Part shown: positions 10,438 through 64,000 of the stretch, in pieces
Layout of the letters: every line of letters begins with the position of its first letter
How positions within the stretch are numbered: position 1 is the stretch's first letter
IMG/VR virus record: IMGVR_UViG_3300032156_000001
Coordinates: 64,001 to 128,000 of that record
DNA from: a virus
Length of the DNA stretch: 64,000 nt
Strand: one strand, 5' to 3'
Program-made: the position numbers and the translations under genes
The notes under the pieces: generated by a model
The model's database searches: none
The model's input: only the letters and a program-made list of their open reading frames with translations
Told to the model about the DNA's origin: nothing

Positions 10438-10455
10438 TTTCCAAGGCCTTGGAAA
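10438..10455. repeat. dispersed 18-bp palindrome, copy 1
   Basis: TTTCCAAGGCCTTGGAAA, 2 nt after a stop codon. Confidence 0.9.
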
Positions 10456-10574
10456 CCCTCCAGCTAAAATTCGGGGCTATTCGCGTTATTATGCCTTGGT
10501 GAGTCTGGCGTTGGGCTGGGCTCGTCCAAGCGTAATAACACGGCGCGGGCACCCCGCGTAGAAAGGAGTGCACT

Positions 10575-11237
10575 ATGAGTACCACAAAGGCGAAGGTGGA
10601 GATGGCCAAGGAGGCAGCCGCGTTGGAGGAGATCAAGAAGCACAATCCCGAACTGCTTGGCGATCCCAAGATGCAGGAGGGGTTGAAAGCCGTCGTGGTT
10701 CGGATGGAGGCCCACCTGATCGGATGCCCCCAGCTCGTGGACGACGTGGAGTTCAAGAAGGGCTTCGAGGCCGTCAGGAGTGCCATTCAAGGCACGGAAA
10801 AGGCTGCAGTCGAGAAGGCGACTGAGGAGATGGTCGGGCAGGTCGAACAGGGCGTACCGCCGGCGGAGGCGGCGGAAACGCTCAAGGACCGTGCACTGGC
10901 CGTGTGCGGCCGCACCAAGGAAGGTGCGGCGAAGGCGGCGCGGTGGATCTACGACAAGATCCTCACACGTGGAGCCAGGTGCATCTGTACGCTCGTCGGC
11001 GGAACCGCGTGGACGGCGTTCAAGATCGTGGTCGACGGCGTCGATGCGGCTCTTCAGCTGGTGGTCGAGACGGCCGCGTTGGCGATCGACCTGATCTGGT
11101 CGATCGTGGACCGCGTCCGCGGTCTCACGCCCGCGCTCCCCGGAAGGGGCCCTGCCATGAGGTGGATCGAGGAGCAGAAGGAGTTGGCCGCGAAGTACGA
11201 AAGGCACGTGCAGGCGGCGAACGAGTACGTCGACTAG
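10575..11237 (+). CDS. hypothetical protein
   Basis: 220 aa; AAGGAG RBS; followed by a terminator. Confidence 0.75.
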   Translation: MSTTKAKVEMAKEAAALEEIKKHNPELLGDPKMQEGLKAVVVRMEAHLIGCPQLVDDVEFKKGFEAVRSAIQGTEKAAVEKATEEMVGQVEQGVPPAEAAETLKDRALAVCGRTKEGAAKAARWIYDKILTRGARCICTLVGGTAWTAFKIVVDGVDAALQLVVETAALAIDLIWSIVDRVRGLTPALPGRGPAMRWIEEQKELAAKYERHVQAANEYVD

Positions 11238-11282
11238 GCTCCTGCCGTGGCGCCGGCCGCGGCGGGACAGGATCGGGACTTG

Positions 11283-11313
11283 CGGGCGCGATTGGAGATC
11301 GCGCCCGTTTTTT
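11283..11313 (+). terminator. intrinsic terminator
   Basis: CGGGCGCGAT / ATCGCGCCCG stem followed by T6. Confidence 0.8.
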
Positions 11314-11342
11314 CGCTACTGGCAGAGGGAAAGGAGGGCCGC

Positions 11343-11894
11343 ATGAGATCGCGAGATTACATAGACGACGGGGTGTCGGACATGACGGTTCGCGTGTACG
11401 AGACCGACTTGCGGCATAAGGCGGCGCCGAAGTTCGGCCGCTTCCTGCAGGCTTGGGATGAGACGCGGCTGTGGGACCGAAAGCTGCTGGCCCGTTGCGA
11501 CACGGTTGAATTGGCGGCATTTACCAATTTCCTCGACTGCGTGGCCGCGCGGGTCCTGCAGGAATGGCTCGTGCGCTCCGGCCTGCGCGTTGCCAACCAC
11601 AGGGACACGAGGCGTATCCTGAAGCGGCTGTGCGTCGATATGGGCCTGCCTCCCGACATCGATCCCAACTACGGCCGGTTTCATGCGCTCTTCGATCACG
11701 TCCGGGTCCTGAAGAGTGACGAAGGCCCTTACTACGCGATCTCCGAGCCGTACGACACGGCGTTCGACTGCCATCTGTTCGACGAAGCTCGGTCGAAGCT
11801 GTTGGAGAAAGGCTGGGAGGTAGGAGTAAAGGGCCGCTCGCAGCACGCCCCATTGGACGGGACGTTACGGCTCATGTTCATCATCGACAAGTGA
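11343..11894 (+). CDS. hypothetical protein
   Basis: ATG 11343 behind AAGGAGG within ORF 11247-11894. Confidence 0.7.
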   Translation: MRSRDYIDDGVSDMTVRVYETDLRHKAAPKFGRFLQAWDETRLWDRKLLARCDTVELAAFTNFLDCVAARVLQEWLVRSGLRVANHRDTRRILKRLCVDMGLPPDIDPNYGRFHALFDHVRVLKSDEGPYYAISEPYDTAFDCHLFDEARSKLLEKGWEVGVKGRSQHAPLDGTLRLMFIIDK

Positions 11895-13123: not shown

Positions 13124-13138
13124 GCTGGAGGAACTGAC

Positions 13139-14101
13139 ATGCAGCACAACTGGGGACGTTGTCCCACGTCGGAGAGCGTGATGGCCGAGGTGGCCCAACT
13201 GACGGGGACGGAGCTGAAGTACGAGTTCAGGCAGGCCGTGCCGATTTCCAGCCTGAAGATCGGGCCGTCGAAGAAGAACAACGCCCGCCTCGAGCCGGTC
13301 GAGGAGGACGTGGCCGCGCGGTACGCGGCGGACATGCGGAAGGGGGACGTGTTCCCCGCGACCGTGATCCTCGACAACGGGCTCATCCTGGCCGGCAACA
13401 CCAGGGTCAAGGCCGCGCAGATGGCCGGCGCGGACGCCGTCGCGGCCTACGTCATCTGCGGCATCACGCCGGGGCAGCAGTTCTTCTTCGTCCGCCGGGA
13501 CAACGCGAAGCACGGGGTCCCGCTGTCCATGGACATGCAGGTGGAGACCTGCGCGGAGCTGCACCTCACGTACGGGATGCCCGTCAAGACCCTGTGCGAC
13601 CTGTGGTTCGGCACGGCGCTGTCGTACTACAACCGGATCATCGACGCCGTCCACGCGCGGAAGGTGGTCGCCAAGCTGTCCGGCTGGAAGGAGATCTCCG
13701 TCGCTGGCACGGCGCGCAGCACGCTGGCCGCGCTGTACCCGCTGCTCGACAGCAGGCACGTCCTCCGCGGCGCCGCGGACGTCGTGACGCGGCACGGCTA
13801 CTCGTCGGCGCAGACGTCGGCCCTGCTGGCCAGCATCAAGGCGAAGGACAACGAGGCCGACAAGCTGGCGGTGATCGAGGAAGACAGGAGGGCCAATGAG
13901 GGCAGGGTGAAGGGCACCCCGCGGTACGACCTCGACTTCAAGAGGGAGCTCAACAGGCTGCTGAACTTCCTCGAGACGGCCGCGAACGGCAAGCCGCTGC
14001 CCGGCGTCAGCAAGATCGCGTCGGACAAGAAGATCGCCGCGGAGCTGAAGGGCGTCATCGGCAAGATGATGGCCCGGCTGCGGCAGGTGAAAGGAGGATA
14101 G
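13139..14101 (+). CDS. ParB/Srx N-terminal domain protein
   Basis: NNARL...YAADMRKGDVFPATVILDNGLILAGNTRVKAA matches the ParB/Srx GxxR arginine-patch region. Confidence 0.7.
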   Translation: MQHNWGRCPTSESVMAEVAQLTGTELKYEFRQAVPISSLKIGPSKKNNARLEPVEEDVAARYAADMRKGDVFPATVILDNGLILAGNTRVKAAQMAGADAVAAYVICGITPGQQFFFVRRDNAKHGVPLSMDMQVETCAELHLTYGMPVKTLCDLWFGTALSYYNRIIDAVHARKVVAKLSGWKEISVAGTARSTLAALYPLLDSRHVLRGAADVVTRHGYSSAQTSALLASIKAKDNEADKLAVIEEDRRANEGRVKGTPRYDLDFKRELNRLLNFLETAANGKPLPGVSKIASDKKIAAELKGVIGKMMARLRQVKGG

Positions 14102-14102
14102 G

Positions 14103-14525
14103 ATGAACCTCTCGCTGGAGGTGCTGCGGCAGCTGGGCGACGGGAGATGGCGTTCCTGCGCCCGGCTGCTGCAGAAACTGGACGGCTGCATCCAGCCGGA
14201 ACGCGCGGCAAGGCGCTACTCCGACACGGTCGAGCACGCGTCAGACATGCCGCTGGGCGACAAGATCGACGCCGGCAGGCGCATGCTCATCGTACAGGCC
14301 GTCGAGGCCTTGCGCAGGCAGGGCAGGGTGGAAGTGGACGGCAAGGGCTTCGGCAAGAGGGCCAGGCTCAAGCCGTACGGCAACGACACGCAGGGAAGGG
14401 CGGTGCTGACCGCTCTTGGTCTGGTCGGGAAGGCCATTGAGCGCTCGCATGTGTCGCCGGAGGCGAAGGCCGCTTGCCGGGGGCATTGCGAGGCGATTCG
14501 TGAGCTGGTGGAAGGAGGACGCTGA
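14103..14525 (+). CDS. hypothetical protein
   Basis: 140 aa; GGAGG RBS; operonic. Confidence 0.65.
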   Translation: MNLSLEVLRQLGDGRWRSCARLLQKLDGCIQPERAARRYSDTVEHASDMPLGDKIDAGRRMLIVQAVEALRRQGRVEVDGKGFGKRARLKPYGNDTQGRAVLTALGLVGKAIERSHVSPEAKAACRGHCEAIRELVEGGR

Positions 14526-15754: not shown

Positions 15755-15782
15755 AGCCGCCGGCGACGGATGAAAAGAGCCA

Positions 15783-16016
15783 ATGATGGCAGAGACTGCC
15801 GTGAAAGAAGCCATACCGAAATGGGTCTGGCGCTGTATGGACTGCCAGACCGTCAGCGAGGATGCCACATCCAGTAGCTTTCACGTCGGCTGCATAGGGC
15901 GACGCGTGCGCGTCAAGCTCCGCGAATTCAGGAAGATGCGCGAGCCGGTCGCGAGCAGGTCCGGCGAGCGCATCTGGGTGCTGAAGAAAGAGTTCAAGGA
16001 CGCAGCGCCGTTCTGA
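15783..16016 (+). CDS. small hypothetical protein
   Basis: 77 aa, CxxC; its 3' end is duplicated at 17357-17390. Confidence 0.55.
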   Translation: MMAETAVKEAIPKWVWRCMDCQTVSEDATSSSFHVGCIGRRVRVKLREFRKMREPVASRSGERIWVLKKEFKDAAPF

Positions 16017-16019: not shown

Positions 16020-16045
16020 CTGACAGGCAGGACAGTCGTTTTCAT

Positions 16046-42685: not shown

Positions 42686-43426
42686 GTGTTGAAACAAGTT
42701 ATTACGGGATCGGGAGCCGCAAGCAAAACGGCCGCTTCCGTCAGCGGGGACGTTACCGCGTGGGCCGACCTGGACGGCGCGCTCGTACGGATGTCCGCGA
42801 CCTCTGTTGCGCACATTCACGGCGTCCTGGAGGGATACGACGGACAGACGGTCTATTTGATCAACGTTGGAAGTTTCGACATCTATATCGAGCACGAGTC
42901 CGCGATGGAACAGGTCGAAGCTAATCGGCTCCTTGCGCCAAACGAAGAGGCCCTGCTGGTTGGAACGGGCAAATCGACGCAGATAATCTACGATTCTGCC
43001 GTTGGGCGTTGGCGCATCTTTAGAGGGCGAGGCGACCCCGGCGATTCCGGAGCCAAAGGCGATCCCGGAGATCCCGGAACGCCCGGAGCCAAAGGCGATC
43101 CCGGAGATCCCGGAGCCAAAGGCGATCCCGGCGATCCTGGAACGCCCGGAGCCAAAGGAGATCCCGGAGATCCCGGCGATCCTGGAACGCCCGGAGCCAA
43201 AGGCGATCCCGGAGAGCCCGGAGATCCCGGCGATCCCGGAGCCAAAGGCGATCCCGGCGATCCTGGAGCCAAAGGCGATCCCGGAGATCCCGGAACGCCC
43301 GGAGCCAAAGGCGAGCCCGGAGATCCCGGCGCGAAGGGCGACAAAGGCGATACCGGCGATCCAGGCACGCCGGGTGCGGACGGACTGACGCAGGCGCAGG
43401 TTTTGGCGCGAGGAATGGGGGCGTGA
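42686..43426 (+). CDS. collagen-like triple-helix (Gly-X-Y) protein
   Basis: Uninterrupted GDP/GAK/GTP/GEP triplets at about 43030-43380. Confidence 0.85.
43030..43380 (+). repeat. 9-nt-unit coding tandem repeats of the collagen region
   Basis: GGCGATCCC / GGAGATCCC / GGAACGCCC / GGAGCCAAA units shuffled. Confidence 0.85.
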
Positions 43427-45114: not shown

Positions 45115-45972
45115 ATGCCGCTGCCCGGCACGCCCGAGCCGCCGAATCCCGGCGAGACCGTCGAGGAAGTCGTGCGGAGGCGTATCCGCGAGGACGAAGC
45201 CTTCCGCACCGCCATTTCGCCCAACGACTATACCGACCGGCTGCCCGGCGAGTCGGGCGCGGCTTATCTCGAGCGCCGGCGGCGCGAACAGCGCGAGGCG
45301 TACGAGGCAGCCCTGACAAGGCGAATGAACGAGGACTGGCAGCGCCTGTCGCGCGAAAGCACGGGCCTCTTCGGGCTGACGGAGCGCTATCGGCAGGCTC
45401 CGTCGCCCCCCGATCTCGCGGTCCGCGAAATCAGGGCGGCCGAGGTCCGCGAACTCAGGGCGGCCCTGGAGCAAGGCAGGCCCAGTCTCCTCGGGGACGG
45501 CATTCAACGGCGCATTCTGCCGCCGGTGCCGGTCGAGAGGACTGGAGCGGGCGACACCGGCAACACGCCGTCGTACACCGCGATCACGGTACAGGAGCGG
45601 GGGCCGGCCGGGGCGAGAGCCGCCAGCTGGGAATGGTCGGCAGACGCGGCGACATTTCTGCTGCCGACGCGTGAAGTCGCTGCGACGCTTTCGGACCAGG
45701 AGAGGGAGCAGATCGCCGGAATGGCGGCCGCGTTGGGCGACTGGCCTGTACGGGTGGTCATCGGCGGTGAGCACGTCGGCGACATGCGGCCCAACGATGC
45801 GCTTGCTGCGCTCGGCTTGGCGGTACGGCGCGGGACGGTCGAGCTGGTTGCTCGTGAGGTCATCGGTGCCGCCATTACTAACGCGGCCGCAATAGGCCGC
45901 CTTAACGTCACCGCCGGTGACAGGGAACCGTCCCTGTTCGACCCGAAATGGATGGGGGAAGTCCGTTGGTGA
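45115..45972 (+). CDS. hypothetical protein
   Basis: 285 aa; AAGGAGG RBS; preceded by TTGATA-16-TACACT. Confidence 0.65.
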   Translation: MPLPGTPEPPNPGETVEEVVRRRIREDEAFRTAISPNDYTDRLPGESGAAYLERRRREQREAYEAALTRRMNEDWQRLSRESTGLFGLTERYRQAPSPPDLAVREIRAAEVRELRAALEQGRPSLLGDGIQRRILPPVPVERTGAGDTGNTPSYTAITVQERGPAGARAASWEWSADAATFLLPTREVAATLSDQEREQIAGMAAALGDWPVRVVIGGEHVGDMRPNDALAALGLAVRRGTVELVAREVIGAAITNAAAIGRLNVTAGDREPSLFDPKWMGEVRW

Positions 45973-46562
45973 GACCTAAGAAGGCCAAAAAGGCGTGGCA
46001 GGGCAAGGGGTCCGCCACGCTGTTCATGGAGCGCCTGCGCGCAAGGAGGACGGAGATGAGACTGGTCCTGAAGCCCGACATGGCGACGTTCGTGCACTTC
46101 GCGCTGAACAGCCCCGGCTCGTTCAACCAGTTCGGCACGATGCAGGTCCGCAGCTTCACCTCGGACGACTTCAACGTCGTGAAGCAGATGGCGCGGATCA
46201 AGAAGTGGTTCCGCGAGCACGTGCTCATGAAGGAGGACGCCAAGGCGCCGGATGAGGACGCCAAGTTCAGGCTGCCGAAGAAAGAGGTCGCGGTCGGCAT
46301 CCCCCAGGGGTACGCCGACATCCTCAAGACGCTCCTGGAGCACTACAAGCCGGCCGGGCACACCGCCGAATGGTGCGAGGCCTACGCCCCGCTGATGTGC
46401 CAGCTCAAGGGCGAGAAGTTCGTCGAGGAGGACATCTGGCTGGACCCCGACGAGGAGGCGCGGAAGGAGAAGGAGGCCGAGGACAAGCGGGCTGCCGAGG
46501 AGAAGGAAAAGGCCGAGAAGAGAGCCGCCGAGAAGGCCGCCAAGGAGGCCGAAAAGAAGTAG
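45969..46562 (+). CDS. hypothetical protein with a Lys/Glu/Ala-rich tail
   Basis: GTG 45969 overlaps the upstream stop; strong GC3 bias. Confidence 0.7.
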   Translation: MRPKKAKKAWQGKGSATLFMERLRARRTEMRLVLKPDMATFVHFALNSPGSFNQFGTMQVRSFTSDDFNVVKQMARIKKWFREHVLMKEDAKAPDEDAKFRLPKKEVAVGIPQGYADILKTLLEHYKPAGHTAEWCEAYAPLMCQLKGEKFVEEDIWLDPDEEARKEKEAEDKRAAEEKEKAEKRAAEKAAKEAEKK

Positions 46563-46584
46563 GTTTCCAAGGCCTTGGAAACCT
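46561..46584. repeat. dispersed palindrome, copy 5 (extends to 24 bp)
   Basis: AGGTTTCCAAGGCCTTGGAAACCT overlapping a stop codon. Confidence 0.9.
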
Positions 46585-46606: not shown

Positions 46607-46837
46607 ATGACTGACTACGCGCGAGCGCGCGAACGGCTCCGGCGGAAGATGCTGAAGGACGATGAGACTGCTGCAATTCATGCGGCGGTCCTGCGCGGCT
46701 TCGAGAAGGGCTGGATATCGGGATTGGGCGCTGCATTCCGCAAGCGGCAGGCCGTGAAGACGGAGGACGGCGCCAAGGTCTTCGTCTGCCCGTCAGAGAT
46801 CAGGGCCCTGTGGAGGCAGCCACGCTACGGAGGTTGA
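46607..46837 (+). CDS. hypothetical protein
   Basis: ATG 46607 behind GGAGGGAG. Confidence 0.55.
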   Translation: MTDYARARERLRRKMLKDDETAAIHAAVLRGFEKGWISGLGAAFRKRQAVKTEDGAKVFVCPSEIRALWRQPRYGG

Positions 46838-49950: not shown

Positions 49951-50784
49951 ATGGCGGAGGAAAAACCCATGCGAAAAGCCCTTCTTGTTGGCATCAACCA
50001 GTACAGCGCGCCGTACGCGCTGCAGGGCTGCGTCAACGACGTCATGGCGATGCGCAGCCTGCTGCGCGACTACCTGGGCTTCCCGGCGTCGGGCATCCTG
50101 ATCCTGAAGGACAAGCAGGCGACCACGAGGAACATCCTGAACGGCCTGAGGTGGCTGGCCAACATCAACGCCGGCGGCATCGCCCTGTTCCACTATTCCG
50201 GTCACGGCGCGCAGGTGCTCACCAGCGACCCCGGCGAGCCGGACGGATTGGCCGAGTGCATCTGCCCGGTCGACTTCAACTGGACGCCGCAGCGCATGAT
50301 CACCGACAAGCAGCTTGTCGCGGCGCTGGCGTTGCTGCCGTCCACCGCGGCTACGAACTGGTTGTCGGATTCCTGCCATGCGGGAGGACTGGACGAGACC
50401 GACCGCGGCGCCAAATCGCTCGCGACCGACAAGCGGACCCTGCGGCACATGATACTGCCGCCTGCCATGGCCGCCGAGGTGGAGCGCCTGAGGAAGAAGA
50501 AAAAGACCAAGGTGCGGACGATGGCGAAGTCGCTGAAGGCGGCGGAACTGGCCGTAGGCTTCATGGCGGCCTGCAGGGCCAACCAGACGGCGTCCGACAC
50601 GTACGAGGACGGTCGGTGGTGCGGCGCGTTCACGTGGGCGTTCCTGAAGGCCGTGAAGGCCAATACCCGCGCGGCGCTGACCGACCTCTGCGCGACCACG
50701 CGTTCGACCCTGTCGAAGGCGCGCTACTCGCAGGCCCCGCAGGTGGAAGGCACGAGGATCGACAAGCCGTTCCTGTCCTGGTGA
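49951..50784 (+). CDS. caspase-family cysteine protease (metacaspase, peptidase C14)
   Basis: KALLVGINQY, LQGCVND, FHYSGHG (catalytic His), SDSCH (catalytic Cys), GAFT. Confidence 0.9.
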   Translation: MAEEKPMRKALLVGINQYSAPYALQGCVNDVMAMRSLLRDYLGFPASGILILKDKQATTRNILNGLRWLANINAGGIALFHYSGHGAQVLTSDPGEPDGLAECICPVDFNWTPQRMITDKQLVAALALLPSTAATNWLSDSCHAGGLDETDRGAKSLATDKRTLRHMILPPAMAAEVERLRKKKKTKVRTMAKSLKAAELAVGFMAACRANQTASDTYEDGRWCGAFTWAFLKAVKANTRAALTDLCATTRSTLSKARYSQAPQVEGTRIDKPFLSW

Positions 50785-50798
50785 CGGAAGGAGGTCCG

Positions 50799-51050
50799 AT
50801 GGCGACCGCGCTGAACGCCGGCCGCGGCTTCACGAGCCGCAAGTTCATCGTAGTCATCGTGGCGCTGGTGTGCTTCACCGTCCTGGCGTACTCGATGATC
50901 ATGCCGATAGAGCTGTACGCGGACCTGGTGACGTGGCTGCTGATCGCGTACATGGCCGTCGAGGGCGGCGGGGACGCCATCAGCCGCACGAAATGGGCCC
51001 GGCCGACGGAGCTGATGCCGCCCAAGGACGCGCCGCCGCCCAAGCCTTGA
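50799..51050 (+). CDS. holin-like small two-TM protein
   Basis: FTSRKF followed by two hydrophobic helices. Confidence 0.55.
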   Translation: MATALNAGRGFTSRKFIVVIVALVCFTVLAYSMIMPIELYADLVTWLLIAYMAVEGGGDAISRTKWARPTELMPPKDAPPPKP

Positions 51051-51075
51051 CTTTTCGGCACCGCGCGCGAACAAT
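51047..51075 (+). promoter_or_regulatory. possible sigma70-like promoter
   Basis: TTGACT-17 nt-AACAAT. Confidence 0.45.
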
Positions 51076-51104
51076 GCGGGGGGACGACAAAGGAGGCCGA
51101 CGCC

Positions 51105-51986
51105 ATGCCGTTCAAGTCGAAGTCGCAGTGGCATAAGTTCTTCGCGATGGCCAACCGCGGGGAGATCTCCGAGGGAAAGGCGAAAGAGTGGGCAGAAGAG
51201 ACCAAGACGCCCTTCAAGAGCCTGCCGGAAAAGAAGAAGGAGAAGGCCGAGAAGAAGTCCGCCGCCGACGTCTCCAGGGCCGCCCAGATAGCGGAAGGCA
51301 CGCCGATGGAGAAGAAGGAGCACGGTGTCGGCACCGCCGCGGCCAGGCAGATCGCTACCGATCACGTCGATGAGCATCCCGGCAAGGATGTCTACGGCGA
51401 GTTGAAGAAAGTGGACGCGAAGCTGGAGAAGAAGGAGGCGAGCCAAGTGGACAACTTCGAGAAGGTGCGCGCGCTGCTGGCCAAGGCGGCCGAAGGCCTG
51501 ATGCCCGAACAGGAAGACGGCGTCACGGGGTCCATGGGGCCCGGGGCCGCCGCGCCGGGTATCTGGTCGCAGCTGGCGCAGGCGCTCGGCGGGGCCGGCG
51601 AGTCCATCAAGGGCATGGCCAGCAAGGGCCTCGGGTTCGCGAAGAGCCTGCCCGGCAAGTTCGAGGCGATGCCCGGCTGGCAGAAAGGCCTGGCGGGGGC
51701 CGGCGTCGGCGGAGCGGGAGTGCTCGGCGGGGTCGGCCTGTACAGCCTGATCCGGCACATCCTGGCCAACCGCGCGGAGAAGGAAGGCGCGGCGCACGAC
51801 CTGCCCTGCGGCGGCTTCGCGGACGGCTTCCTGTCCTACTGCATCGATAACAAGCTGACCGACGACCAGACGCTGGAGCTGCTCGAGAAGGGCGCGGCGC
51901 TGGAAGGGCCGGCCGGCGAGGAGCTCGTCGACCTGGCCGGCCAGTTGGCCAAGGTGGGCATGCAGAAGGCGGCGGAGACGAAGTGA
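51105..51986 (+). CDS. putative virion-associated protein (MPFKS N-terminal motif + DUF5661-like segment)
   Basis: MPFKSKSQW...; EKKEHG...ARQIATDHVDEH...YGEL; several K-x-A motifs. Confidence 0.65.
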   Translation: MPFKSKSQWHKFFAMANRGEISEGKAKEWAEETKTPFKSLPEKKKEKAEKKSAADVSRAAQIAEGTPMEKKEHGVGTAAARQIATDHVDEHPGKDVYGELKKVDAKLEKKEASQVDNFEKVRALLAKAAEGLMPEQEDGVTGSMGPGAAAPGIWSQLAQALGGAGESIKGMASKGLGFAKSLPGKFEAMPGWQKGLAGAGVGGAGVLGGVGLYSLIRHILANRAEKEGAAHDLPCGGFADGFLSYCIDNKLTDDQTLELLEKGAALEGPAGEELVDLAGQLAKVGMQKAAETK

Positions 51987-53764: not shown

Positions 53765-56700
53765 ATGCCCGACAGCGACCTTCCGCTCGGCCTCCCGGCC
53801 GCCCAGCCGCTCCAGTTGCGCCGCTTCGACGACCACCACGCCGCGCGCGTCAATATCCTGAACGGCGTCGTGTCGGCGCTGCAGGAGAAGTATCCCGTCG
53901 AGAACGAGCGGTACAGGTTGGAGCTTTCCGGCCTGCACTACAAGCAGCCCAACAGCTACTCGCTGGAGGAGCAGAAGAAGGCGATCATCCACGGCGACTC
54001 GCTGCACGCCAAGCTGCACGGCACGTGGGCGCTGATTGACAAGGCCAGCGGCAAGCCGGTAGACACCAAGGAGACCGTCGTGGCGCACGTGCCGTGGCTG
54101 ACCGAGCGCGGCACGCTCATCCACAACGGGTCCGAGTATTTAATAAGTTCGCAATTCCGTTTGAAGCCCGGCGTCTACTCGCGCATGAAGGACAACGGCA
54201 TCCTGGAGGCCCACGTCAACGTGAAGCCCGGGACCGGGCCGTCCTTCCGCGTCTACATGGAGCCGGAGACCGGCGTGTTCCGCATGGCGGTCGGGCAGTC
54301 CACGCTGAAGCTCTACCCGATCCTGCGATCCATGGGCGTGTCCGACAAGGAGCTGCGCGACGCCTGGGGCGAGGAGCTGCTGCACAAGAACGTCGAGGCC
54401 GAGGACCCGCGCGCGGTAGGCCGCGCGTTCGCGAAGCTGGTCGAGAAGCCCGTCGAGGAAGGGCACCCGACGATCGTGTCTGCCGCGATGCCGGAGCTGC
54501 CGAAGGCGGCCAGCGAGACGCCCGAGACGGTCAAGAAGCTGCAGAAGATCGTCGATGCGCACAAACTTAAAGGCGGATATGGCGACGTTGCCTGGGACGA
54601 GGAGACCGGCGAGACCCACCTGTCCGTCGGCGACTGGCACGAGCAGGAAGACTATGCCGGGCTTGAGAAGGCCATCAAGGCCGTCCCGGGCGTGAAGAAG
54701 TTCCAGGTCGAGGCGGAAATAGGTCCGCCCGACGGCTGGTGGGCCGTCAACCACGGTCGTGAGCCGAAGATCTGGCACAAGCCGAAGCCGCGCGATCCCG
54801 AGCAGGAAGCCGCATTCATGGCCAGCCTCGACGGGCCGCCGCTCAAGATTGTCGGGCAGACGCTCAAGGAGGCCCAGGCGCCGATCGGCCAGAAGACCAC
54901 GGACCGCAAGTGGAAGTACCTGTGGTTCCACGGCGAGCTGTACACGAACCCGCCCGACAAGGAGCACCCGGATCCGTGGGTGCTGCTGAAGGTCCACAAG
55001 GGCCTGCCGCAGGCCGCCTATGCCACGCTGAAGGGCGAGGGCGTCGACTGCGAGCCGCACTACGACGACCCGCACGTCTCCGTCCTGCGCGGCGAGGAAG
55101 TCCGCGAGCTCATAAAGAAGTATGGCGACCAGTGGCAAGGCGCGGCCAAGATCGGTCAGAAGATGCGCTTCCGCCTGAGCAAGATCGTCAGCCTCGTGCC
55201 GGGCGGCTGGCCGGAGATGGACCGCGTGTGGTTCATCGAGGTAGAGTCGCCCGAGCTGGAGGAGTACCGGAAGGACCTCGGCTTCCGCAATCTGCCGCTC
55301 CAGCCGAAGACTGGCAACGAGGTCAGGTTCCATGTCACTTTCGCCGTGAAGCCGAACGTCGCGAGCAAGGCCGCCGCGGCGCTGACCGAGCCGCCCGAGG
55401 AAGGGGCGACGGCGCCGGCGGTCAAGCCGCCCGGCGAGGAAGGCCGGAAGATCCTGCACGCGCTCCAGCAGATGGAGCTCGACCCCGACGTCACGGAGTC
55501 GACGCTAGGCGAGCGGCACGTGAACGTGACGCCGAAGATGATGGTCCGGGCGACAAAGAAGCTGCTGGGCATCCAGAAGGGGACCGAGGAGACCGACGAC
55601 CGCGACTCGCTGGCCTACCAGACGCTGCACTCGCCGGAGGACTTCTTCGCGGAGCGGATCAGGCGCGATGCCGGCGGGCTGGGCAGGCGGATGCTGTGGC
55701 ACGCGACCAGGAAGGGCAACCTCGACTACGTCCAGAGCGGCGCGCTGACGCCGCAGATGCACGCCGTCCTGCTGAGCAGCGGGCTGGCCGCCGCGGCCGA
55801 GGAAACGAACCCGCTCGAGCTGGCCGATCAGCATCATCGCGTCGTGCGCACGGGCGAGGGAGGGATGTCGTGTTATTCGGAAGATACCGAAGTGCTAACG
55901 ATAGAAGGATGGAAACACTGGGGAACCGTCGTCGCTGCTGACGAACTTGCCTGTCGGGTGAACGGTCGGTTGGAGTTCCACCGACCGACGCGTCTTTTTA
56001 GCGGCGCATATCGCGGAAAGCTCTTATCTGCCGATACCCGGGTGATCAACTACGCGGTTACTCCGGATCATAGGGTGTTCGTGTCTTGGGATACGACGAC
56101 GGCCGGCCACGAATCGGTTCGGTCTCCGTTCCGGTTTCGGCCGGCTTTCGATATCCACGGCAAAAGAGTGCGGCATTTGGTTTCCGCTGAACCGTATCTG
56201 GGTGGCAGCCGGCCGGACAAACACGTTTTGCCGCCTGCGCCCGTTGACCGGGAAAACGCAGGATCCGCGAGAAGAGAGGCACTAGAGCTTGATTTTCTGG
56301 ACTGGGTGGAGTTCCTCGGTTGCTACCTGGCTGACGGCAGTTTCAGGTACGATGGCGACCGGCACGAATACCGAACGGAAGTTGGGAAAGTCCGATCATT
56401 GAATCCTGGCGAATACGCTACGATTGACGCCGTTTTGCGCCGATTGGGATTCACTTACAGATATGAGCAGAATCGTCGGTTTATCGTTCACGGGAAACAT
56501 CTGGCACACTACTTGTCGAAGTTTGGTAAAGCATGGACGAAGTACGTGCCGGAATACGTGATGCGCGGCGATATAGAAACGCGAAAGCGTTTCTTCTTTG
56601 CCATAACGACGATGGATCACACGGCGGCGTGCCCTGGACTGTCCTTCAAATATATGTCCGCTTCACCTAAGCTGGCCGAGCAGGTGGCTTGGCTGGCTGT

Positions 56701-59700
56701 TTCTCTCGGATACGCAGTTCACTACCTGACTCGCGTCAACCACAACAGGACCAATCCGATACATGTCATTCATATTTCTGAAGCCTCGGAAAGTCTCGTC
56801 TATCGGCAACACGCCGGCTTGCAGTATCGTGAACTTGATTATGCTGGAACGGTCTATTGCGCGTCTGTTCCTGGGGAGCTGGTATTTATACGTAGACACG
56901 GAAAAACGATGTGGTGTGGCAACTCCTTAGATGCAGTCCCCGAGGAGGCCAGGGTGGTGCAGCCGTCCCACTTCGGCTTCGTCGATCCGAGCCGCGCGCC
57001 CGAATCTGCAAGAATGGGTTTGGACAGCAGGATCGCCCACGGCGCGCTGCGCGGCAGCGACGGCCAGGTCCATGCGCCGATGCTGGACCTGAAGACCGGC
57101 AAGACCGAACTAGTGTCCGCGGCGCAGGCCGTCAAGAGCGTGGTCGCGTTCCCCGGCGAGATGGCCAGGACCGGCGCCACCGCCCGCGCCATGGTGCGCG
57201 GCAAGCGCATCGAGAACGTGCCGAAGGGCGAGGTGGACTTCGAGCTGCCCCACCACGCGCACATGTTCTCCGGGGTGACGAACCTCGTCCCCATGGCCGG
57301 CGCGCTGAAGGGCGGCCGGCTCATGATGGGCGCGAAGTTCTTCAGCCAGGCGCTGCCGCTCCAGCACAGCGAGGCGCCGCTGGTCCAGAACCTGTCGCCG
57401 GACGGCCGCAGCTTCGACGAGATCATGGGCGAGAAGGTCGGCGCGGTGCGGGCGGCCAAGCGCGGCGTCGTTATCGGCATCGACAAGAACAAGGTCCTCG
57501 TCCGCGAGGAGGGCGGCGGCAAGCGCGAGTACCCGCTGTACGACAACTTCGTCTTCAACAGGCGCACCGCGATCCACAACACGCCCGCCGTCGGCATCGG
57601 CGAGACGGTCGAGCCGGGCGCGCTGCTGGCCAGGAGCAACTATACGGACGCCAAGGGCGACACGGCGGTCGGGCTGAACTTGCGGACCGCGTACATGCCG
57701 TTCAAGGGCCTGAACTACGAGGACGCCGTCGTCATCAGCGAGAGCGCCGCCCAGCGGCTCAGCTCCGAGCACATGTTCCAGCGGACGCTCGAGAAGGACG
57801 ACCGCGACATGGAGTTCGGCAAGAAGCCGTTCATGTCGGTCTTCCCGGCCAAGTACGTCAAGGACCAGCTGGGCCGGATGGACGAGCACGGCGTGGTCAG
57901 ACCCGGGACCGTCGTGAAGAAGGGCGACCCGCTGATCCTCGGCATGGAGAAGACGCGGTTCACGCACACGCACCGCGGCCACAAGCCCATCTACACCGAC
58001 GCGTCGGAGACGTGGGACCACGAGGCGGACGGCACCGTCACGGACGTGTCGCCCACCAAGGGCGGCGGCTGGAACGTCACCGTGAAGACGTACCTGCCGG
58101 CGCAGACGGGCGACAAGCTGGCCGCGCGGTTCGGCGACAAGGGCGTCATCTCCGAGGTGATGCCGGACCACCAAATGCCGCACGACTCGCAGGGCAGGCC
58201 CATCGAGCTGTGCCTGAACCCGCTGGGGGTCATCAGCCGCGGCAACCCCGCGCAGGTCTACGAGGCGCTGCTGGGCAAGATCGCCCGGAAGACCGGGCGC
58301 GCGTACGTGGTGCCGTCCTTCCGAAACGGCAGCTGGATCGACTTCGTCCAGGGCGAGCTGCGCAAGAACGGCCTGAGCGACACGGAGGACCTGACCGACC
58401 CCTCGACGGGGACGAAGATCCCCGGCGTCCTGACCGGCGAGCGCTTCATGATGAAGCTGCACCATACCGCCGAGTCGAAGGGCAAGGGCAGGGACGTCGG
58501 CAGCTACACGTCGGAGGGGCTGCCCGCCATAGGGAGCAAGCGGATAGGCCAGATGGAGACCAGCGCGCTGGTCTCGCACAACGTCATGGACGTGCTCAAG
58601 GACGCCAAGCTGGTCCGCGGCCAGAGGAACGACGACTACTGGCGCGAGTTCCGCATGGGCAACGTGCCCGCGTCGCCGCAGACGCCGCTGGTCTACAGGA
58701 AGTTCCTGGCCAGCCTCACGGGCGCCGGCATCAACGTGAAGAAGGAGGGCAACAAGCTCAACCTGTTCGCCCTGACGGACAAGGACGTCGACAAGCTCAG
58801 CGCCGGCGAGGTCAAGGCCCCGCATACCGTCGCCGGCAACGATCTCGCGGAGATAGAGGGCGGCCTGTTCGACAAGGGGCTAACGGGCGGGCATGGCGGT
58901 TCGCGGTGGAGCCACGTGAATCTCGACGAGCCGACGCCCAACCCCGTCATGGAGGAGCCCACTCGCAGGCTGCTCGGCATGACGCAGAAGCAGTTCGAGG
59001 CGGCCATCTCGGCGCGCGGCGGCCAGGGGATCAAGGACGCGCTCTCGAAGATGGACGTGGACCGCGAGATCACTCGGTACGAGGACGAGGTCAAGACGGG
59101 CGCGCGGTCGCGGCGCGATAACGCCGTGAAGTGCCTCGGCTATCTTGAGGCCATGCGGACGCAGGGTTACAAGCCGGAAGAGCTGGTGATGTCGAAGGTC
59201 CCCGTCCTGCCGCCGGGCATGCGCCCCATCGTCCCGTTCCAGGGCAGGCCGCTGGTGTCGGACCCGAACTATCTGTACCGCGACCTGATGCACGCGAACC
59301 AGGATCTGAAGGACGCGAAGGGCGAGCTCGGCGCGGAGCGCGCCGGCGCAGAGCGGCTACGGCTGTACAACGCCTTCAAGGCGGTGACCGGCCTGGGCGA
59401 CCCCGTGCAGGCGAAGACCCGCGAGGCCAACGTGCGCGGCCTGCTGGCGCACGTGTTCGGGACCGGCGGACCCAAGACTTCGATGTTCCAGCGTCGTGTC
59501 CTCAGCACGCCGGTGGACGTGGTCGGGCGCGCGGTCATCACGCCGAACCCGCAGCTGTCGATGGACCAGGTCGGCCTGCCCGAGGAGAAGGCCTGGACGA
59601 TCTACAGACCGTTCATAACCCGCAGGCTGATCCGGCGCGGCATGCCCGCCACCGAGGCCGCGCGCGCCGTGGCGGACAGGCACCCCACGGCGAAGAACGC

Positions 59701-60139
59701 GCTGCTGGAGGAGATGCAGGCCCGGCCCGTCCTCATCAACCGCGCGCCGACGCTGCACAAGTACGGCTTCATGGCGGCGTGGCCGACGCTGGTGAAGGGC
59801 GACACGCTGCAGATCTCGCCGGTGGTGACGCCGGGCTTCGGCGCGGACTTCGACGGCGACGCGATGAACTACCACGTGCCGGTGTCCGACGCCGCCGTCC
59901 GCGAGGCCAAGGAGAAGATGCTGCCGTCGGCGAACTTGCGCGACGTCCGCGGGTTCAAGCTGCACTACCTGCCTCGACACGAGTTCCTGCTTGGGCTATA
60001 CTTGGCCAGCACGGCGGACAACCGCAACGAGCCGCGGTCGTTCCGCACGAGACAGGACGCGCTGCGCGCCTACCGCCGCGGCGAGCTCGGGCTTGGCGAC
60101 CGCGTGGCCACGCTGGACGAAGGGGAGAAGAAGAAATGA
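53765..60139 (+). CDS. phage multisubunit RNA polymerase, beta subunit fused to the N-terminal/catalytic part of beta'; contains an intein and inserted domains
   Basis: beta: GDKLAARFGDKGVI, NPLGVISRGN, FMMKLHH, SKRIGQME. beta': VPVLPPGMRP, SDPNYLYRDL, VDVVGRAVITP, NRAPTLH, GADFDGDAM (DFDGD at 59846-59860). Confidence 0.92.
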   Translation: MPDSDLPLGLPAAQPLQLRRFDDHHAARVNILNGVVSALQEKYPVENERYRLELSGLHYKQPNSYSLEEQKKAIIHGDSLHAKLHGTWALIDKASGKPVDTKETVVAHVPWLTERGTLIHNGSEYLISSQFRLKPGVYSRMKDNGILEAHVNVKPGTGPSFRVYMEPETGVFRMAVGQSTLKLYPILRSMGVSDKELRDAWGEELLHKNVEAEDPRAVGRAFAKLVEKPVEEGHPTIVSAAMPELPKAASETPETVKKLQKIVDAHKLKGGYGDVAWDEETGETHLSVGDWHEQEDYAGLEKAIKAVPGVKKFQVEAEIGPPDGWWAVNHGREPKIWHKPKPRDPEQEAAFMASLDGPPLKIVGQTLKEAQAPIGQKTTDRKWKYLWFHGELYTNPPDKEHPDPWVLLKVHKGLPQAAYATLKGEGVDCEPHYDDPHVSVLRGEEVRELIKKYGDQWQGAAKIGQKMRFRLSKIVSLVPGGWPEMDRVWFIEVESPELEEYRKDLGFRNLPLQPKTGNEVRFHVTFAVKPNVASKAAAALTEPPEEGATAPAVKPPGEEGRKILHALQQMELDPDVTESTLGERHVNVTPKMMVRATKKLLGIQKGTEETDDRDSLAYQTLHSPEDFFAERIRRDAGGLGRRMLWHATRKGNLDYVQSGALTPQMHAVLLSSGLAAAAEETNPLELADQHHRVVRTGEGGMSCYSEDTEVLTIEGWKHWGTVVAADELACRVNGRLEFHRPTRLFSGAYRGKLLSADTRVINYAVTPDHRVFVSWDTTTAGHESVRSPFRFRPAFDIHGKRVRHLVSAEPYLGGSRPDKHVLPPAPVDRENAGSARREALELDFLDWVEFLGCYLADGSFRYDGDRHEYRTEVGKVRSLNPGEYATIDAVLRRLGFTYRYEQNRRFIVHGKHLAHYLSKFGKAWTKYVPEYVMRGDIETRKRFFFAITTMDHTAACPGLSFKYMSASPKLAEQVAWLAVSLGYAVHYLTRVNHNRTNPIHVIHISEASESLVYRQHAGLQYRELDYAGTVYCASVPGELVFIRRHGKTMWCGNSLDAVPEEARVVQPSHFGFVDPSRAPESARMGLDSRIAHGALRGSDGQVHAPMLDLKTGKTELVSAAQAVKSVVAFPGEMARTGATARAMVRGKRIENVPKGEVDFELPHHAHMFSGVTNLVPMAGALKGGRLMMGAKFFSQALPLQHSEAPLVQNLSPDGRSFDEIMGEKVGAVRAAKRGVVIGIDKNKVLVREEGGGKREYPLYDNFVFNRRTAIHNTPAVGIGETVEPGALLARSNYTDAKGDTAVGLNLRTAYMPFKGLNYEDAVVISESAAQRLSSEHMFQRTLEKDDRDMEFGKKPFMSVFPAKYVKDQLGRMDEHGVVRPGTVVKKGDPLILGMEKTRFTHTHRGHKPIYTDASETWDHEADGTVTDVSPTKGGGWNVTVKTYLPAQTGDKLAARFGDKGVISEVMPDHQMPHDSQGRPIELCLNPLGVISRGNPAQVYEALLGKIARKTGRAYVVPSFRNGSWIDFVQGELRKNGLSDTEDLTDPSTGTKIPGVLTGERFMMKLHHTAESKGKGRDVGSYTSEGLPAIGSKRIGQMETSALVSHNVMDVLKDAKLVRGQRNDDYWREFRMGNVPASPQTPLVYRKFLASLTGAGINVKKEGNKLNLFALTDKDVDKLSAGEVKAPHTVAGNDLAEIEGGLFDKGLTGGHGGSRWSHVNLDEPTPNPVMEEPTRRLLGMTQKQFEAAISARGGQGIKDALSKMDVDREITRYEDEVKTGARSRRDNAVKCLGYLEAMRTQGYKPEELVMSKVPVLPPGMRPIVPFQGRPLVSDPNYLYRDLMHANQDLKDAKGELGAERAGAERLRLYNAFKAVTGLGDPVQAKTREANVRGLLAHVFGTGGPKTSMFQRRVLSTPVDVVGRAVITPNPQLSMDQVGLPEEKAWTIYRPFITRRLIRRGMPATEAARAVADRHPTAKNALLEEMQARPVLINRAPTLHKYGFMAAWPTLVKGDTLQISPVVTPGFGADFDGDAMNYHVPVSDAAVREAKEKMLPSANLRDVRGFKLHYLPRHEFLLGLYLASTADNRNEPRSFRTRQDALRAYRRGELGLGDRVATLDEGEKKK
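54940..55350 (+). other. 2H-phosphoesterase-like domain inserted in the RNAP beta region
   Basis: Two HxS/T motifs: PHVSV (55073) and FHVTF (55331). Confidence 0.65.
55871..56923 (+). mobile_element. intein (351 aa) with LAGLIDADG-type homing endonuclease domain
   Basis: Starts CYSEDTEVLT, ends VYCASVPGELVFIRRHGKTMWCGN, +1 Ser; FLGCYLADGSF block; lower GC than the exteins. Confidence 0.9.
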
Positions 60140-61029: not shown

Positions 61030-61253
61030 AGGTGCGCGTGCAGTCAGGCGACATGAGCTCCGTGGAGTTGGAGGACGCCCGCAGCGCGGTGGTCATAGAC
61101 GACCACGGGCAGCCGATCGTGCTGGTGCAGTCGATGGCGCCTGGCCAAGTCCTGGTAGCGCGGGCGTCGGACCCGAACTTCAGGAAGCAGATCGAGGCGC
61201 TCGGCATAGGGTTGCGAGCCGATTTCGAGGTGCGAAAGGGCCATGCGAGCTGA
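61026..61253 (+). CDS. small hypothetical protein
   Basis: GTG 61026 overlaps the upstream stop; 75 aa. Confidence 0.55.
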   Translation: MKVRVQSGDMSSVELEDARSAVVIDDHGQPIVLVQSMAPGQVLVARASDPNFRKQIEALGIGLRADFEVRKGHAS

Positions 61254-64000
61254 CTGGTTCACGGACGCCGTTTACGCCTCCGCGTTGCCGCCGGCTGTCA
61301 AGGAAGTGGCAGGGTGGGGCGGCGCCGGTCGGGCTTTCGGGGGGCGCACGTTCGCCGCCCCGGTCTTCGGGCGGCTCTTCGGACGGACGGCGGCGCCTGC
61401 GGCAGAACAGGCCGCTGCAGGCGCCGCTGCGCGCATCGTGCCGGTAGCAAAGGGGACCGCTGCGGCTGCCGGAACGGCCGCGCGGCCGGGCGCTTTGGCT
61501 GCACTCGGGCAACAGTTCCGGCCGGGCAACGTGGCGTCCCAGTTTTCCCGGCAGCTCGGCTTGGGCGGGTTGGGGACCGCCGCAAGAGGGGAACTGACGT
61601 CGCAATTGCGTTCCGGCGGGCGCATAGGGGAAGAACTGGTAAGGCAGTTCGGCCTTGGCAGCCCCGCGATGGCCGCGCTGGCGCCTGGCATAGCGACACG
61701 GCGCATGGCGGCGCAGCTGGCCCTTCGACCGCCGGTTCCCGCCTTGCAAGGCATCAAGTGGCAGGCGGGTGAAGCGGGTCCGCCCGGCTTGCGTTCCTTG
61801 GTGCCGTCGAGAATGCCGCACGAGCCGGGAGGGACAGTGGAACGCGCCGTCCCGGGGGAACAGTTGGGCGGCGTTCGCATCGGCGGGCGCACGCAGGCGT
61901 ACGCGGAGTCTCCCTCCGGGACCGCCACCGTGCTTCCCATCCTGTATCGGCCGCGGCCTGCGCCCGTACCGGCGCCGGCGGCGTCGATGACTACGCACGT
62001 CACGCCCGCGCAGGCGGCATCAGGCACGCCGGCAGCTGCGAAGACGCCCACGCCAGCGCAGGCCGCTTCGGGGACCATGACAACGTCGAGAAGCCGCGGC
62101 ATGAGCATGGCACCGGCGCAAGGCGAGCAGCCGGCCGCGCCCGGCCAGCCGCCGGCAGGGACCCCGTTGACGCAGGAAGCGTTCATGAAAGGCATCGAGT
62201 CGATACGGCCGGAGACGGGCTTCATGGCCGGCGTCAAGGGCATGCTTCCGTGGATGGCGCTAAGCTACGGACCGCAGATGCTCTCGGGTCTTTATCGCGG
62301 ATTCGTCAAGCCGGACGAGGAGGAAGGCCGCGCGCAGGAAGCGCAGGGCCCGCGCTATAGCCACGGCGTTTCGCCGTACGCTAGCCCAGTCGCCGAGTCG
62401 GAACGGTATCGGTACTGGCCGAAAGGCGCTGCGGACGTTTCCAAGGCCTTGGAAAAGTCGGCTAAGCGGACGTGGCGCTCGAAGTCCTTCCGCAAGTTCA
62501 CGCTGCTGCACAGGTTCCCCGGCAAGACGAGGATGTCGGCCATGCGCAGGAAGACCGTCGCGCGCAGCATGCCGTTCGCTGCCAAGTCGGCCTTCTACTG
62601 CGGCTTGGCGAAGCGTTGCGCCGAGCTCGGCCTTGACAGGGACGACGGCAGGGCCGTCGTGGAAGCCCTGCAGAAGCTGGCCTTCGACGGGGAAAATCCA
62701 CGGCCGGAAGAGGAGGAAATAGACCCGCTGTACACTTATGCCCCGGCGGTTGGCGCCGCCGGCGCGGGTCTTCTTGCTGGCGCCGGGACTGGCGGAGGTC
62801 TGCTGGCTTCCGGCGTGGGCGGCACAATGGTTGGCGGCATGGCGCTCTCTCCATTTGAAAGGTTCGCCGAGGGGGTGCGGAGGAGCCACGCGACTGAAGG
62901 TTGGGGAAAGAATTGGCCGCTGCTGTATTCGACCGGTCAGGGCTTCAAGAACATGGTGACCGGCGAATACGGATCCGATCCCTACGGGTCCGCCCCCGCT
63001 TCGGCGGGGAAGGCGGGAAAGGGCGGCGTCGGCACCGACCCGATGGCACTCGACAAGGCAATAGGCACGCTTAAAGATCCGGAAGTGTATAAGCGGATGA
63101 TTCGGGAGGAGAAAGAAAAGTTCGGGCCGATGAACGCGGAAAGATTGAAAGGTTTTCTCAATCTTGCGTATGAGCAAGCGCGAGTAGGCGGCGAGGTGTC
63201 CCCCGGCGAGGCCGCCGCGTCGGCCACCACGGGGATGATCCCCGGCATACGGGGGCTTGACCGCGCCCAAAAGAGCAAGATCCTTCGCAGGCTTCATCCC
63301 GAGTTGGACGCCGTGAAAACATTGCCGGCATTCCAGACGCCGGGGATCGGCGCGGCGCCCGGGGTAGGAACAGCGCCCGGAGTTAGCAGGCCGTCTGGCG
63401 CTGTCGGGCCGCAGGGCACAGCCGCTGCGCCCATGCCGGGTTCGCCGGCAGCTGCCCGAAGGCCCATGAGCGGCCAGAAGTCCACGCGCGACCAGGTCAG
63501 CCTGATAAGGCAGGAAGCAGCCACGCGGCAGGCGCCGGCCGCTCCGAAGGCCCCGGCGCCGACCGGCTCGCCCAGCGCCGCTGCGGCTCCGGCATCGACT
63601 GGTGCGGCACCGCGACCGTGGTCCGCCCGCGGCGGATTCGAGGGCGCTGAGGGGACCCGTTACGGCATGGCGCAGTCCGGCGGCGAATACGTGCCGCTCA
63701 GCGGCGGCGCCAACACGGAACCTGGCCAGACATACGGCGGCGCGGGGAGCTTCGACATAGACCGAAGGCGCGGCAGCATCGGACTGCCCGTGGCCGCGCG
63801 ACAAGCAATGCAATCGTTCCGTCAACCGCCCAGCGGCGCTTACGCTGCCCCGGAAGGAGCGGTCTACGGCCGCGGGTCCGCAATGGGCGGTCCCGAGCGG
63901 TTCTCGTTCGACCCGTCGGAACGGCTTGTGGGGACTGCGCTGTCAGCGCTGACGGGAGCGGGCGGCGGACAACCCGCCCCGGCGGCCCAGGGCGTGCCGG
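61243..64000 (+). CDS. large Ala/Gly/Pro-rich protein, truncated by the window end (over 900 aa; missing from the supplied ORF track)
   Basis: ATG 61243 (MRADWFTDAVY...); frame read open to 64000; its absence from the track is consistent with no stop in the window. Confidence 0.7.
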   Translation, partial: MRADWFTDAVYASALPPAVKEVAGWGGAGRAFGGRTFAAPVFGRLFGRTAAPAAEQAAAGAAARIVPVAKGTAAAAGTAARPGALAALGQQFRPGNVASQFSRQLGLGGLGTAARGELTSQLRSGGRIGEELVRQFGLGSPAMAALAPGIATRRMAAQLALRPPVPALQGIKWQAGEAGPPGLRSLVPSRMPHEPGGTVERAVPGEQLGGVRIGGRTQAYAESPSGTATVLPILYRPRPAPVPAPAASMTTHVTPAQAASGTPAAAKTPTPAQAASGTMTTSRSRGMSMAPAQGEQPAAPGQPPAGTPLTQEAFMKGIESIRPETGFMAGVKGMLPWMALSYGPQMLSGLYRGFVKPDEEEGRAQEAQGPRYSHGVSPYASPVAESERYRYWPKGAADVSKALEKSAKRTWRSKSFRKFTLLHRFPGKTRMSAMRRKTVARSMPFAAKSAFYCGLAKRCAELGLDRDDGRAVVEALQKLAFDGENPRPEEEEIDPLYTYAPAVGAAGAGLLAGAGTGGGLLASGVGGTMVGGMALSPFERFAEGVRRSHATEGWGKNWPLLYSTGQGFKNMVTGEYGSDPYGSAPASAGKAGKGGVGTDPMALDKAIGTLKDPEVYKRMIREEKEKFGPMNAERLKGFLNLAYEQARVGGEVSPGEAAASATTGMIPGIRGLDRAQKSKILRRLHPELDAVKTLPAFQTPGIGAAPGVGTAPGVSRPSGAVGPQGTAAAPMPGSPAAARRPMSGQKSTRDQVSLIRQEAATRQAPAAPKAPAPTGSPSAAAAPASTGAAPRPWSARGGFEGAEGTRYGMAQSGGEYVPLSGGANTEPGQTYGGAGSFDIDRRRGSIGLPVAARQAMQSFRQPPSGAYAAPEGAVYGRGSAMGGPERFSFDPSERLVGTALSALTGAGGGQPAPAAQGVP
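62438..62455. repeat. dispersed 18-bp palindrome, copy 6 (in-frame, encodes SKALE)
   Basis: TTTCCAAGGCCTTGGAAA. Confidence 0.9.

Follow-up and report, generated by a model that had tools for sequence, protein, structure and literature searches.

A dispersed 18-bp palindrome in a large phage genome: a possible docking site for a phage-encoded dimeric protein

Introduction

Why should an AT-rich 18-mer recur, nearly unchanged, across a G+C-rich phage genome, between genes as well as inside them? The question is raised by a 64,000-nucleotide stretch of DNA (the window) from the IMG/VR virus record IMGVR_UViG_3300032156_000001, in which the palindrome TTTCCAAGGCCTTGGAAA is found six times. The record, which will be referred to as G000, comprises 188,118 bp with 66% G+C and is estimated to be ~90% complete; the window covers its bases 64001–128000, so that window position plus 64000 gives the genome position. 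G000 represents an uncultured large phage with almost all genes on the + strand, the main exceptions being the large terminase gene (2502–4340) and a block at 182.6–185.8 kb. An earlier, sequence-only reading of the window had described the six copies and interpreted them as selected at the DNA level and bound by a dimeric protein. We mapped the palindrome genome-wide, compared it with the corresponding elements of related phages and weighed the explanations for it. With a probability of roughly 0.5, we propose that it is a docking site for a phage-encoded, dimeric DNA-binding protein and divides the one-directional genome into domains.

A sharply bounded and evenly spaced site family

All six copies in the window were recovered where the sequence-only reading had placed them, five of them exact (window 10438, 19118, 25105, 46564 and 62438) and one with a single mismatch (...GGAGA) at 32628. 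None would be expected by chance; the window holds no seventh match at up to three mismatches, and 100 dinucleotide-preserving shuffles gave 0. The complete record contains 14 copies (nine exact, four with one mismatch and one with two) at genome positions 4782, 9428, 24731, 38240, 51283, 74438, 83118, 89105, 96628, 110564, 126438, 147785, 160885 and 181532. Since the next-best matches in G000 carry four to five mismatches, leaving a gap above the 0–2 of these copies, we consider them one sharply bounded site family. Isolated half-sites of the palindrome are not enriched in G000.

TTTCCAA and TTGGAAA form the 7-bp arms of the palindrome and enclose GGCC. Its G+C content is 44% compared to 66% for the genome, in agreement with the description of an AT-rich motif in a high-GC genome. 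In four copies the dyad is extended by GG..CC to 22 bp (GGTTTCCAAGGCCTTGGAAACC); apart from this extension, no position within ±70 nt of the dyad carries information. Copies occur at a mean density of one per ~13 kb, and the intervals (coefficient of variation, CV, 0.41) are more regular than in 20,000 random placements (P=0.0006).

Position of the copies relative to genes

Gene calls were our own and based on third-position G+C (GC3), with several genes added by hand. Genes make up ~86% of the genome, yet only four of the 14 copies fall within them; the other ten are non-coding (P ~2e-6 for at least 10 of 14). Eight are found 1–12 nt past the stop codon of a + strand gene, and seven (4782, 24731, 38240, 51283, 110564, 147785 and 160885) lie 0–25 nt before a start codon with a Shine-Dalgarno sequence in between. 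The six window copies and the two remaining coding copies are placed as follows.

Window 10438–10455, exact: 2 nt past the TGA of an S-adenosylmethionine (SAM)-methyltransferase gene (9851–10435); the next gene (10575) follows after 119 nt.
Window 19118–19135, exact: inside gene 17455–21495, codons 556–560 (SKALE), in the linker (aa 484–589) between the helicase and ligase parts.
Window 25105–25122, exact: 8 nt past the TAG of a 170-aa gene (24584–25096, GC3 0.82), the next gene following ~58 nt downstream.
Window 32628–32645, A17>G (...GGAGA): flanking bases lengthen the dyad to 26 nt; the copy occupies a ~60-nt interruption between blocks of a 36-nt TIGR-like array.
Window 46564–46581, exact, 22-bp dyad: 1 nt past the TAG of gene 45948–46562; the ATG at 46607 follows after 25 nt, with GGAGGGAG ahead of it.
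Window 62438–62455, exact: inside a 1032-aa open reading frame (ORF; 61243 to ~64341, GC3 0.77), codons 400–404 (SKALE).
Genome 9428: coding, in an indel-rich part of a calcineurin-like phosphoesterase.
Genome 181532: coding, in a non-conserved N-terminal extension.

Three further statements of the sequence-only reading thus held: three window copies within 10 nt of a stop codon (distances of 2, 1 and 8 nt at 10438, 46564 and 25105), one copy inside the array region, where it occupies the gap between 36-nt units, and two copies inside long genes in the same frame (19118 and 62438, both TCC AAG GCC TTG GAA). The common frame extends to all four intragenic copies, which read TCC AAG GCC/CCT TTG GAA (S-K-A/P-L-E), the only frame of the palindrome that uses mostly G/C-ending codons. 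All four are located in non-conserved linkers or ends of proteins where no homologue can be aligned. The helicase linker (aa 484–589) does not align with the closest homologue, and the 1032-aa ORF (copy at genome 126438), which lies between the genes for the RNA polymerase (RNAP) subunits beta::beta'N and beta'C, has no homologues in the relatives. The 170-aa gene at 24584–25096 comes after a gene (23808–24545) encoding an XRE-type helix-turn-helix (HTH) and a sigma region 4. Copies as breakpoints of genome mosaicism were also considered and rejected, as by inspection of the gene table only one site (74438) stands at a junction between conserved and non-conserved genes.

Sister dyads in related phages

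The palindrome is private to G000. No other IMG/VR contig carries the exact 18-mer, and among 185,579 species genomes and the metagenome contigs there were 32 and 58 single hits, respectively, all in genomes or contigs unrelated to G000 by blastn or tblastn. As every hit was single and unrelated, the motif led to neither a multi-copy host nor a close relative. On the same grounds an origin of the palindrome in the host genome was ruled out.

Relatives were found instead via the helicase and by aligning sigma homologues, and the whole records were then read. Those in culture, Salmonella phage Arash and three Vibrio phages, are only remotely related (sigma identity 27–28%); Arash particles contain abundant polymerase subunits and sigma (PMC10585845). 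The protein collection holds sigma homologues that are closer to G000 (76% and 60% identical). Two of the related genomes have sister dyads. G001 (163 kb) is collinear with G000 but reversed, its proteins being 30–66% identical, and contains the 18-bp dyad TTCGGAACCGGTTCCGAA in 18 copies at up to four mismatches. Compared with the G000 palindrome, G and C are exchanged at the eight inner G/C positions and otherwise only positions 3 and 16 differ, all A/T positions of the G001 dyad being kept. G006 (211 kb, complete with terminal repeats) is likewise collinear and carries 13 copies of a 20-bp dyad, TTCCGRTGCC followed directly by GGCAYCGRAA. Placement between stop codon and Shine-Dalgarno sequence plus start codon is common to all three genomes, and so is the regular spacing (CV 0.42, P=0.001 in G006; CV 0.65, P=0.05 in G001).

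The sites themselves stand at non-orthologous junctions: those before a sigma gene and before gene 147815–148819 are occupied in G000 and empty in G001 and G006. Only a rough regional correspondence is seen, with sites around the terminase gene, ahead of UvsX, and within or shortly downstream of the RNAP beta gene. With proteins of the relatives only about 30–60% identical, the intergenic DNA cannot be aligned.

The imperfect copies reveal how the dyads are built. In G006 the variable purine and pyrimidine positions of the two arms combine as A..T (4 copies), A..C (4), G..T (4) and G..C (0), a pattern that points to independent half-sites. A-C clashes occur just as often as G-U pairs, and which way an imperfect copy points does not depend on the gene strand. 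In G001 four copies contain a G-G clash and others have lost outer pairs. Those coding copies of the two genomes that lie in conserved proteins can be compared with orthologues: VGISSE of G001 aligns with VLLSAG and VGVDSV, and HSDAGIDP of G006 with HYDVGLDP and HIDDTVDQ, in each case free of gaps. From these ungapped alignments we conclude that these copies arose by substitution in place and not by insertion.

More distant helicase-bearing relatives, G002, G003 and G005, also carry palindrome lattices. The first two have evenly spaced, mostly coding parS-like dyads, TTCAC-N3-GTGAA in G002 (38 copies in 88 kb) and TTCACGSCGTGAA in G003 (18 exact copies in 131 kb), and in G005 the 9-mer TACGSCGTA occurs 92 times in 173 kb (~1 expected), about every 1.9 kb and often extended to CAATACGSCGTATTG. 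All three lattices are denser than the G000 family, evenly spaced, mainly intragenic and found in all frames; since they sit mostly in genes and in any frame, they represent a pattern at the DNA level.

A proposed docking site for a dimeric DNA-binding protein

Symmetry, independent half-sites, genic copies created by substitution, even spacing in three genomes, and a sequence that changes while the build is kept together argue for a DNA site that is read by a dimer and maintained at a set density. The proposal of DNA-level selection acting on a symmetric dimer site, made from the window alone, is strengthened by the bounded family, its regular spacing, its enrichment outside genes and the half-site dyads that substitution wrote into the relatives' genomes. 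We therefore favour, at about even odds, a docking site for a phage-encoded protein. A sequence-specific protein of the phage would bind the palindrome as a symmetric dimer, with the 14 sites kept at intervals of ~13 kb on a genome whose transcription runs nearly all one way. Sites would be put where they do least harm, in gaps between stop codon and ribosome-binding site, in protein linkers and between blocks of an RNA array. For 18 fixed bases in a tightly packed genome the gap between stop codon and Shine-Dalgarno sequence may be the cheapest location, and it would also suit an insulator along a train of genes. The bound protein would most likely mark chromosome domains, acting either as a transcription block or insulator or as the loading point of a spreading factor; any one of these consequences of binding is less probable than docking itself.

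Several observations weigh against this interpretation. Nine identical 18-mers exceed the conservation seen in most operator families. On the coding strand, the 7-bp RNA stem survives in all five variant copies of G000, either through changes confined to the loop (GGCG or GCCT) or through a U-G wobble (A17>G), and the seven copies with a downstream Shine-Dalgarno sequence stand just 5′ of a ribosome-binding site, as would befit a role at the RNA level. Neither G007 (sigma 53% identical, 49% G+C) nor Arash has a dyad of this kind. With regard to the reader, Pfam and PHROGs scans of the small proteins conserved among G000, G001 and G006 detected no DNA-binding domain, and the HTH and ParB-like proteins of G000 have no homologue in G001 or G006, which carry the sister dyads.

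A broader proposal is that a group of large phages with their own RNAP keeps a private palindrome every 10–16 kb as a ruler that co-evolves with its reader and divides the chromosome into domains, the sites serving for instance to load a spreading clamp or to insulate transcription. We put this forward as speculation and judge it rather unlikely; if true, the ruler would be a form of phage chromosome organisation so far undescribed.

A possible element acting in RNA

The main rival to docking on DNA is a role in RNA, which we consider unlikely on balance. The + strand would form a hairpin of 7–10 bp after a stop codon and before a ribosome-binding site, which might serve as a binding or cleavage site for a phage RNA-binding protein, shield the preceding message or modulate translation of the following gene. 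Nearly all genes lie on the strand in question, and the preserved stem and the seven copies ahead of start codons are readily accommodated; moreover, the GG..CC extension of four copies lengthens the helix, and RNA-related features abound in this phage (a Ro60-like gene and the TIGR-like array). However, the hairpin of the motif alone reaches only −5.6 kcal/mol with a z-score near 0, and several copies fold no better than their shuffles. The relatives also speak against it: in G006 mismatches that break an RNA helix equal wobble pairs in number and imperfect copies are oriented independently of transcription, and many copies in G001 disrupt the lower stem. Four copies in G000 are intragenic, where cleavage would be harmful, and even spacing would not be expected from gene-specific RNA control.

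Candidate readers and possible loading of a ParB-type protein

Returning to the docking site, the following genes of G000 come into question as readers or as parts of the transcription machinery.

Window 13139–14101, + strand: ParB-like candidate, 320 aa, weakly ParB-N-like, with a GxxR-like stretch (LILAGNTRVKAA).
Window 23808–24545, + strand: sigma-like protein of 245 aa that combines an XRE-type HTH at its N-terminus with a sigma-70 region-4 HTH and lacks homologues in the relatives.
Genome 50426–51280: sigma-like protein, its stop codon 2 nt before the site at 51283; no homologue in the relatives.
Genome 160916–161617: sigma-like protein, the site at 160885 lying 13 nt before it; the only one of the three sigmas conserved in the relatives.
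Window 53765–60139: fused RNAP beta::beta'N, 2124 aa, with beta'C just past the end of the window.

The sequence-only reading had named the first two products as proteins to be assayed for binding. As one rival explanation, the ParB-like protein might load at the palindromes as a clamp and spread over ~10 kb, silencing or compacting the genome in the manner of ParB or KorB. It matches phrog_620 ('ParB-like partition protein') with E 3e-5 over ~70 residues (aa 46–114) in addition to its GxxR-like motif, and intervals of 13 kb are compatible with the range of ParB spreading. The TTTCC...GGAAA ends of the palindrome presumably echo the sites of Noc (NBS) and ParB (parS). Nevertheless, a six-frame search with Pfam ParB_N gave no match, no solved relative in the PDB was found by sequence, and an AF2 single-sequence model was unusable (pLDDT 39). 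Furthermore, the gene is an accessory of G000, located within a 7-kb block (genome 74.5–81.4 kb) that is missing from G001 and G006 despite their analogous dyads, and phrog_620 matches G000 only, with no homologue in G001, G006 or the other relatives examined. This explanation is thereby weakened, and we regard loading of this protein as improbable.

As to the second protein, the XRE-type HTH of the product at 23808 is indeed present; the protein also has a sigma region 4, lacks homologues in the relatives and is still a weak candidate reader. As a third possibility the conserved sigma was considered and ruled out, because its region-4 recognition helix (SPGAVSQR) is invariant across relatives with differing dyads. 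Genes present in G001 and G006 but not in G007 encode a methyltransferase, two unknown proteins, the helicase-ligase fusion, and the products of genome 145146–146153 and 161627–162550, which are taken to be late repeat-domain proteins; none of them is an evident DNA-binding protein.

Possible signals for the phage RNA polymerase and selfish elements

The palindrome might also address the phage RNAP, as a promoter read by sigma or as a non-canonical terminator or pause site. The phage has the polymerase genes beta::beta'N and beta'C as well as three sigma-like proteins, and two of the sites adjoin sigma genes as listed above. This explanation is very improbable. The site is symmetric without a conserved flank or second element within 70 nt, the region-4 helix stays the same while the dyads differ, and adjacency to sigma genes is not kept in G001 or G006. 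Ordinary terminators of the phage, which are G+C-rich hairpins with a T tract (−20 to −32 kcal/mol), lie elsewhere and never at the palindrome.

Two specific forms of such a signal were ruled out. An intrinsic terminator is incompatible with the A/U-rich stem of −5.6 kcal/mol, which is followed by CC and not by a T tract, and a sigma-70-type promoter with a symmetric site that carries no information beyond its 18–22 bp. An ATAGAC element upstream of two copies was likewise dismissed, being the codon pair ATA-GAC that is common in genes. This pair (Ile-Asp) occurs 49 times on the coding strand genome-wide (e.g., window 18862 and 19819), a frequent use of the A-ending Ile codon ATA for a phage with 66% G+C.

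Least probable of the explanations considered is a selfish, REP-like miniature palindrome copying itself into intergenic gaps: copies nearly identical within a genome and different between genomes, positions not conserved among relatives, and a location just past stop codons are reminiscent of REP elements, but the element measures just 18 bp and is spaced more regularly than random, the Y1/RAYT transposase (PF01797) is absent from G000, G001 and G006, and the gap-free coding copies of the relatives led us to rule out a REP/RAYT origin.

Further features of the phage

G000 also encodes a DNA polymerase, a UvsX-like recombinase and a Ro60-like protein. The gene at window 17455–21495, which holds the copy at 19118, is a single ORF of 1346 aa that combines an SNF2-type helicase, an ATP-dependent DNA ligase domain and a C-terminus resembling a Zn-metallopeptidase; in distant relatives the tblastn match to this fusion spans the helicase part only (aa 1 to ~500).

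The array around the copy at 32628 extends over 7.4 kb (window 27350–34790) and is composed of 36-nt TIGR-like units (GATCGAGACA-N8-GNGNGAACCA-N8) in several blocks, amid which a 441-aa gene (29726–31051) shows a weak match to IS110-family transposases. One array unit contains CTTCCAAGG, which is within chance expectation for an array of this length. Instead of a 36-nt array, G001 and G006 have CRISPR-like arrays with a 61-nt period and repeats of ~29 nt (G001 133738–134329, 11 units; G006 4400–5879, 18 units). tRNA and Rfam scans of the 64-kb window found nothing. A 9-nt periodic repeat at window 42995–43403 encodes a collagen-like Gly-X-Y tract.

Comparison with known systems

Several phage groups are on record as carrying dispersed dyad repeats, most clearly in Cluster O mycobacteriophages, and to our knowledge none has a known function. 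Related systems are KorB-OB of plasmid RK2, ParB-parS and Noc-NBS, in which near-perfect palindromes of 13–16 bp are dispersed and read by dimers that can act at a distance. The G000 palindrome resembles these systems in being dispersed, nearly perfect and identical within the replicon; it differs in that the defining reader of the ParB family is not established in G000 and the candidate is absent from the relatives with sister dyads.

Two mycobacteriophage systems share the placement. Like the stoperators of Cluster A phages, the G000 sites are present in many copies along the whole genome in short gaps between co-directional genes and would be read by one phage protein (PMC4351075). Stoperators, however, lack symmetry, follow the direction of transcription and have a known immunity repressor as their binding protein. 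The palindrome of G000 is perfect, neither a repressor nor an integrase was identified in this phage, and the imperfect copies in G006 show no polarity. Cluster K phages contain start-associated sequences, which are short, conserved and directly upstream of a subset of gene starts (PMC4351075). Half of the G000 copies are similarly located 0–25 nt before a start codon; the other half lie in genes, in the RNA array or 58–119 nt from the next gene, and the G000 element is palindromic and does not itself contain a Shine-Dalgarno sequence.

The closest counterpart is found in Corndog and its relatives of Cluster O, which carry a 17-bp dyad repeat, 5′-TGTTCGGNNNCCGAACA, with 7-bp arms and a 3-bp spacer in more than 30 copies per ~70 kb; a dimeric regulator was proposed by the authors, the function being unknown (PMC4351075). 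Both elements have two inverted 7-bp arms around a short spacer, are scattered genome-wide and show no link to promoters or terminators; many of the Cluster O repeats occupy short intergenic gaps, some lie at the 5′ ends of genes and about one-third are intragenic. G000 differs in having 14 copies in 188 kb and a conserved 4-nt spacer compared to a variable one of 3 nt. Its sites are significantly even in spacing whereas those of Cluster O are denser at one end, the phage is large, myovirus-like and equipped with its own RNA polymerase, and each of its relatives has its own dyad whereas Cluster O genomes share one. With short arms, a small spacer and at least 10 near-identical copies between and within genes, the G000 palindrome belongs to a known descriptive kind, the Cluster O-type dispersed dyads.

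To this kind the G000 locus adds statistically even spacing across three related genomes, sister dyads that change in sequence while keeping their build, and evidence that sites were written into conserved genes by point substitution. In combination, these properties argue for a strongly selected signal at the DNA level with a regional role, not one tied to individual genes. Having three collinear genomes also provides a handle on the reader. This is expected to be a protein with orthologues in all three, in which the residues that touch DNA change in parallel with the dyads; if found, it would explain a recurrent feature of phage genomes.

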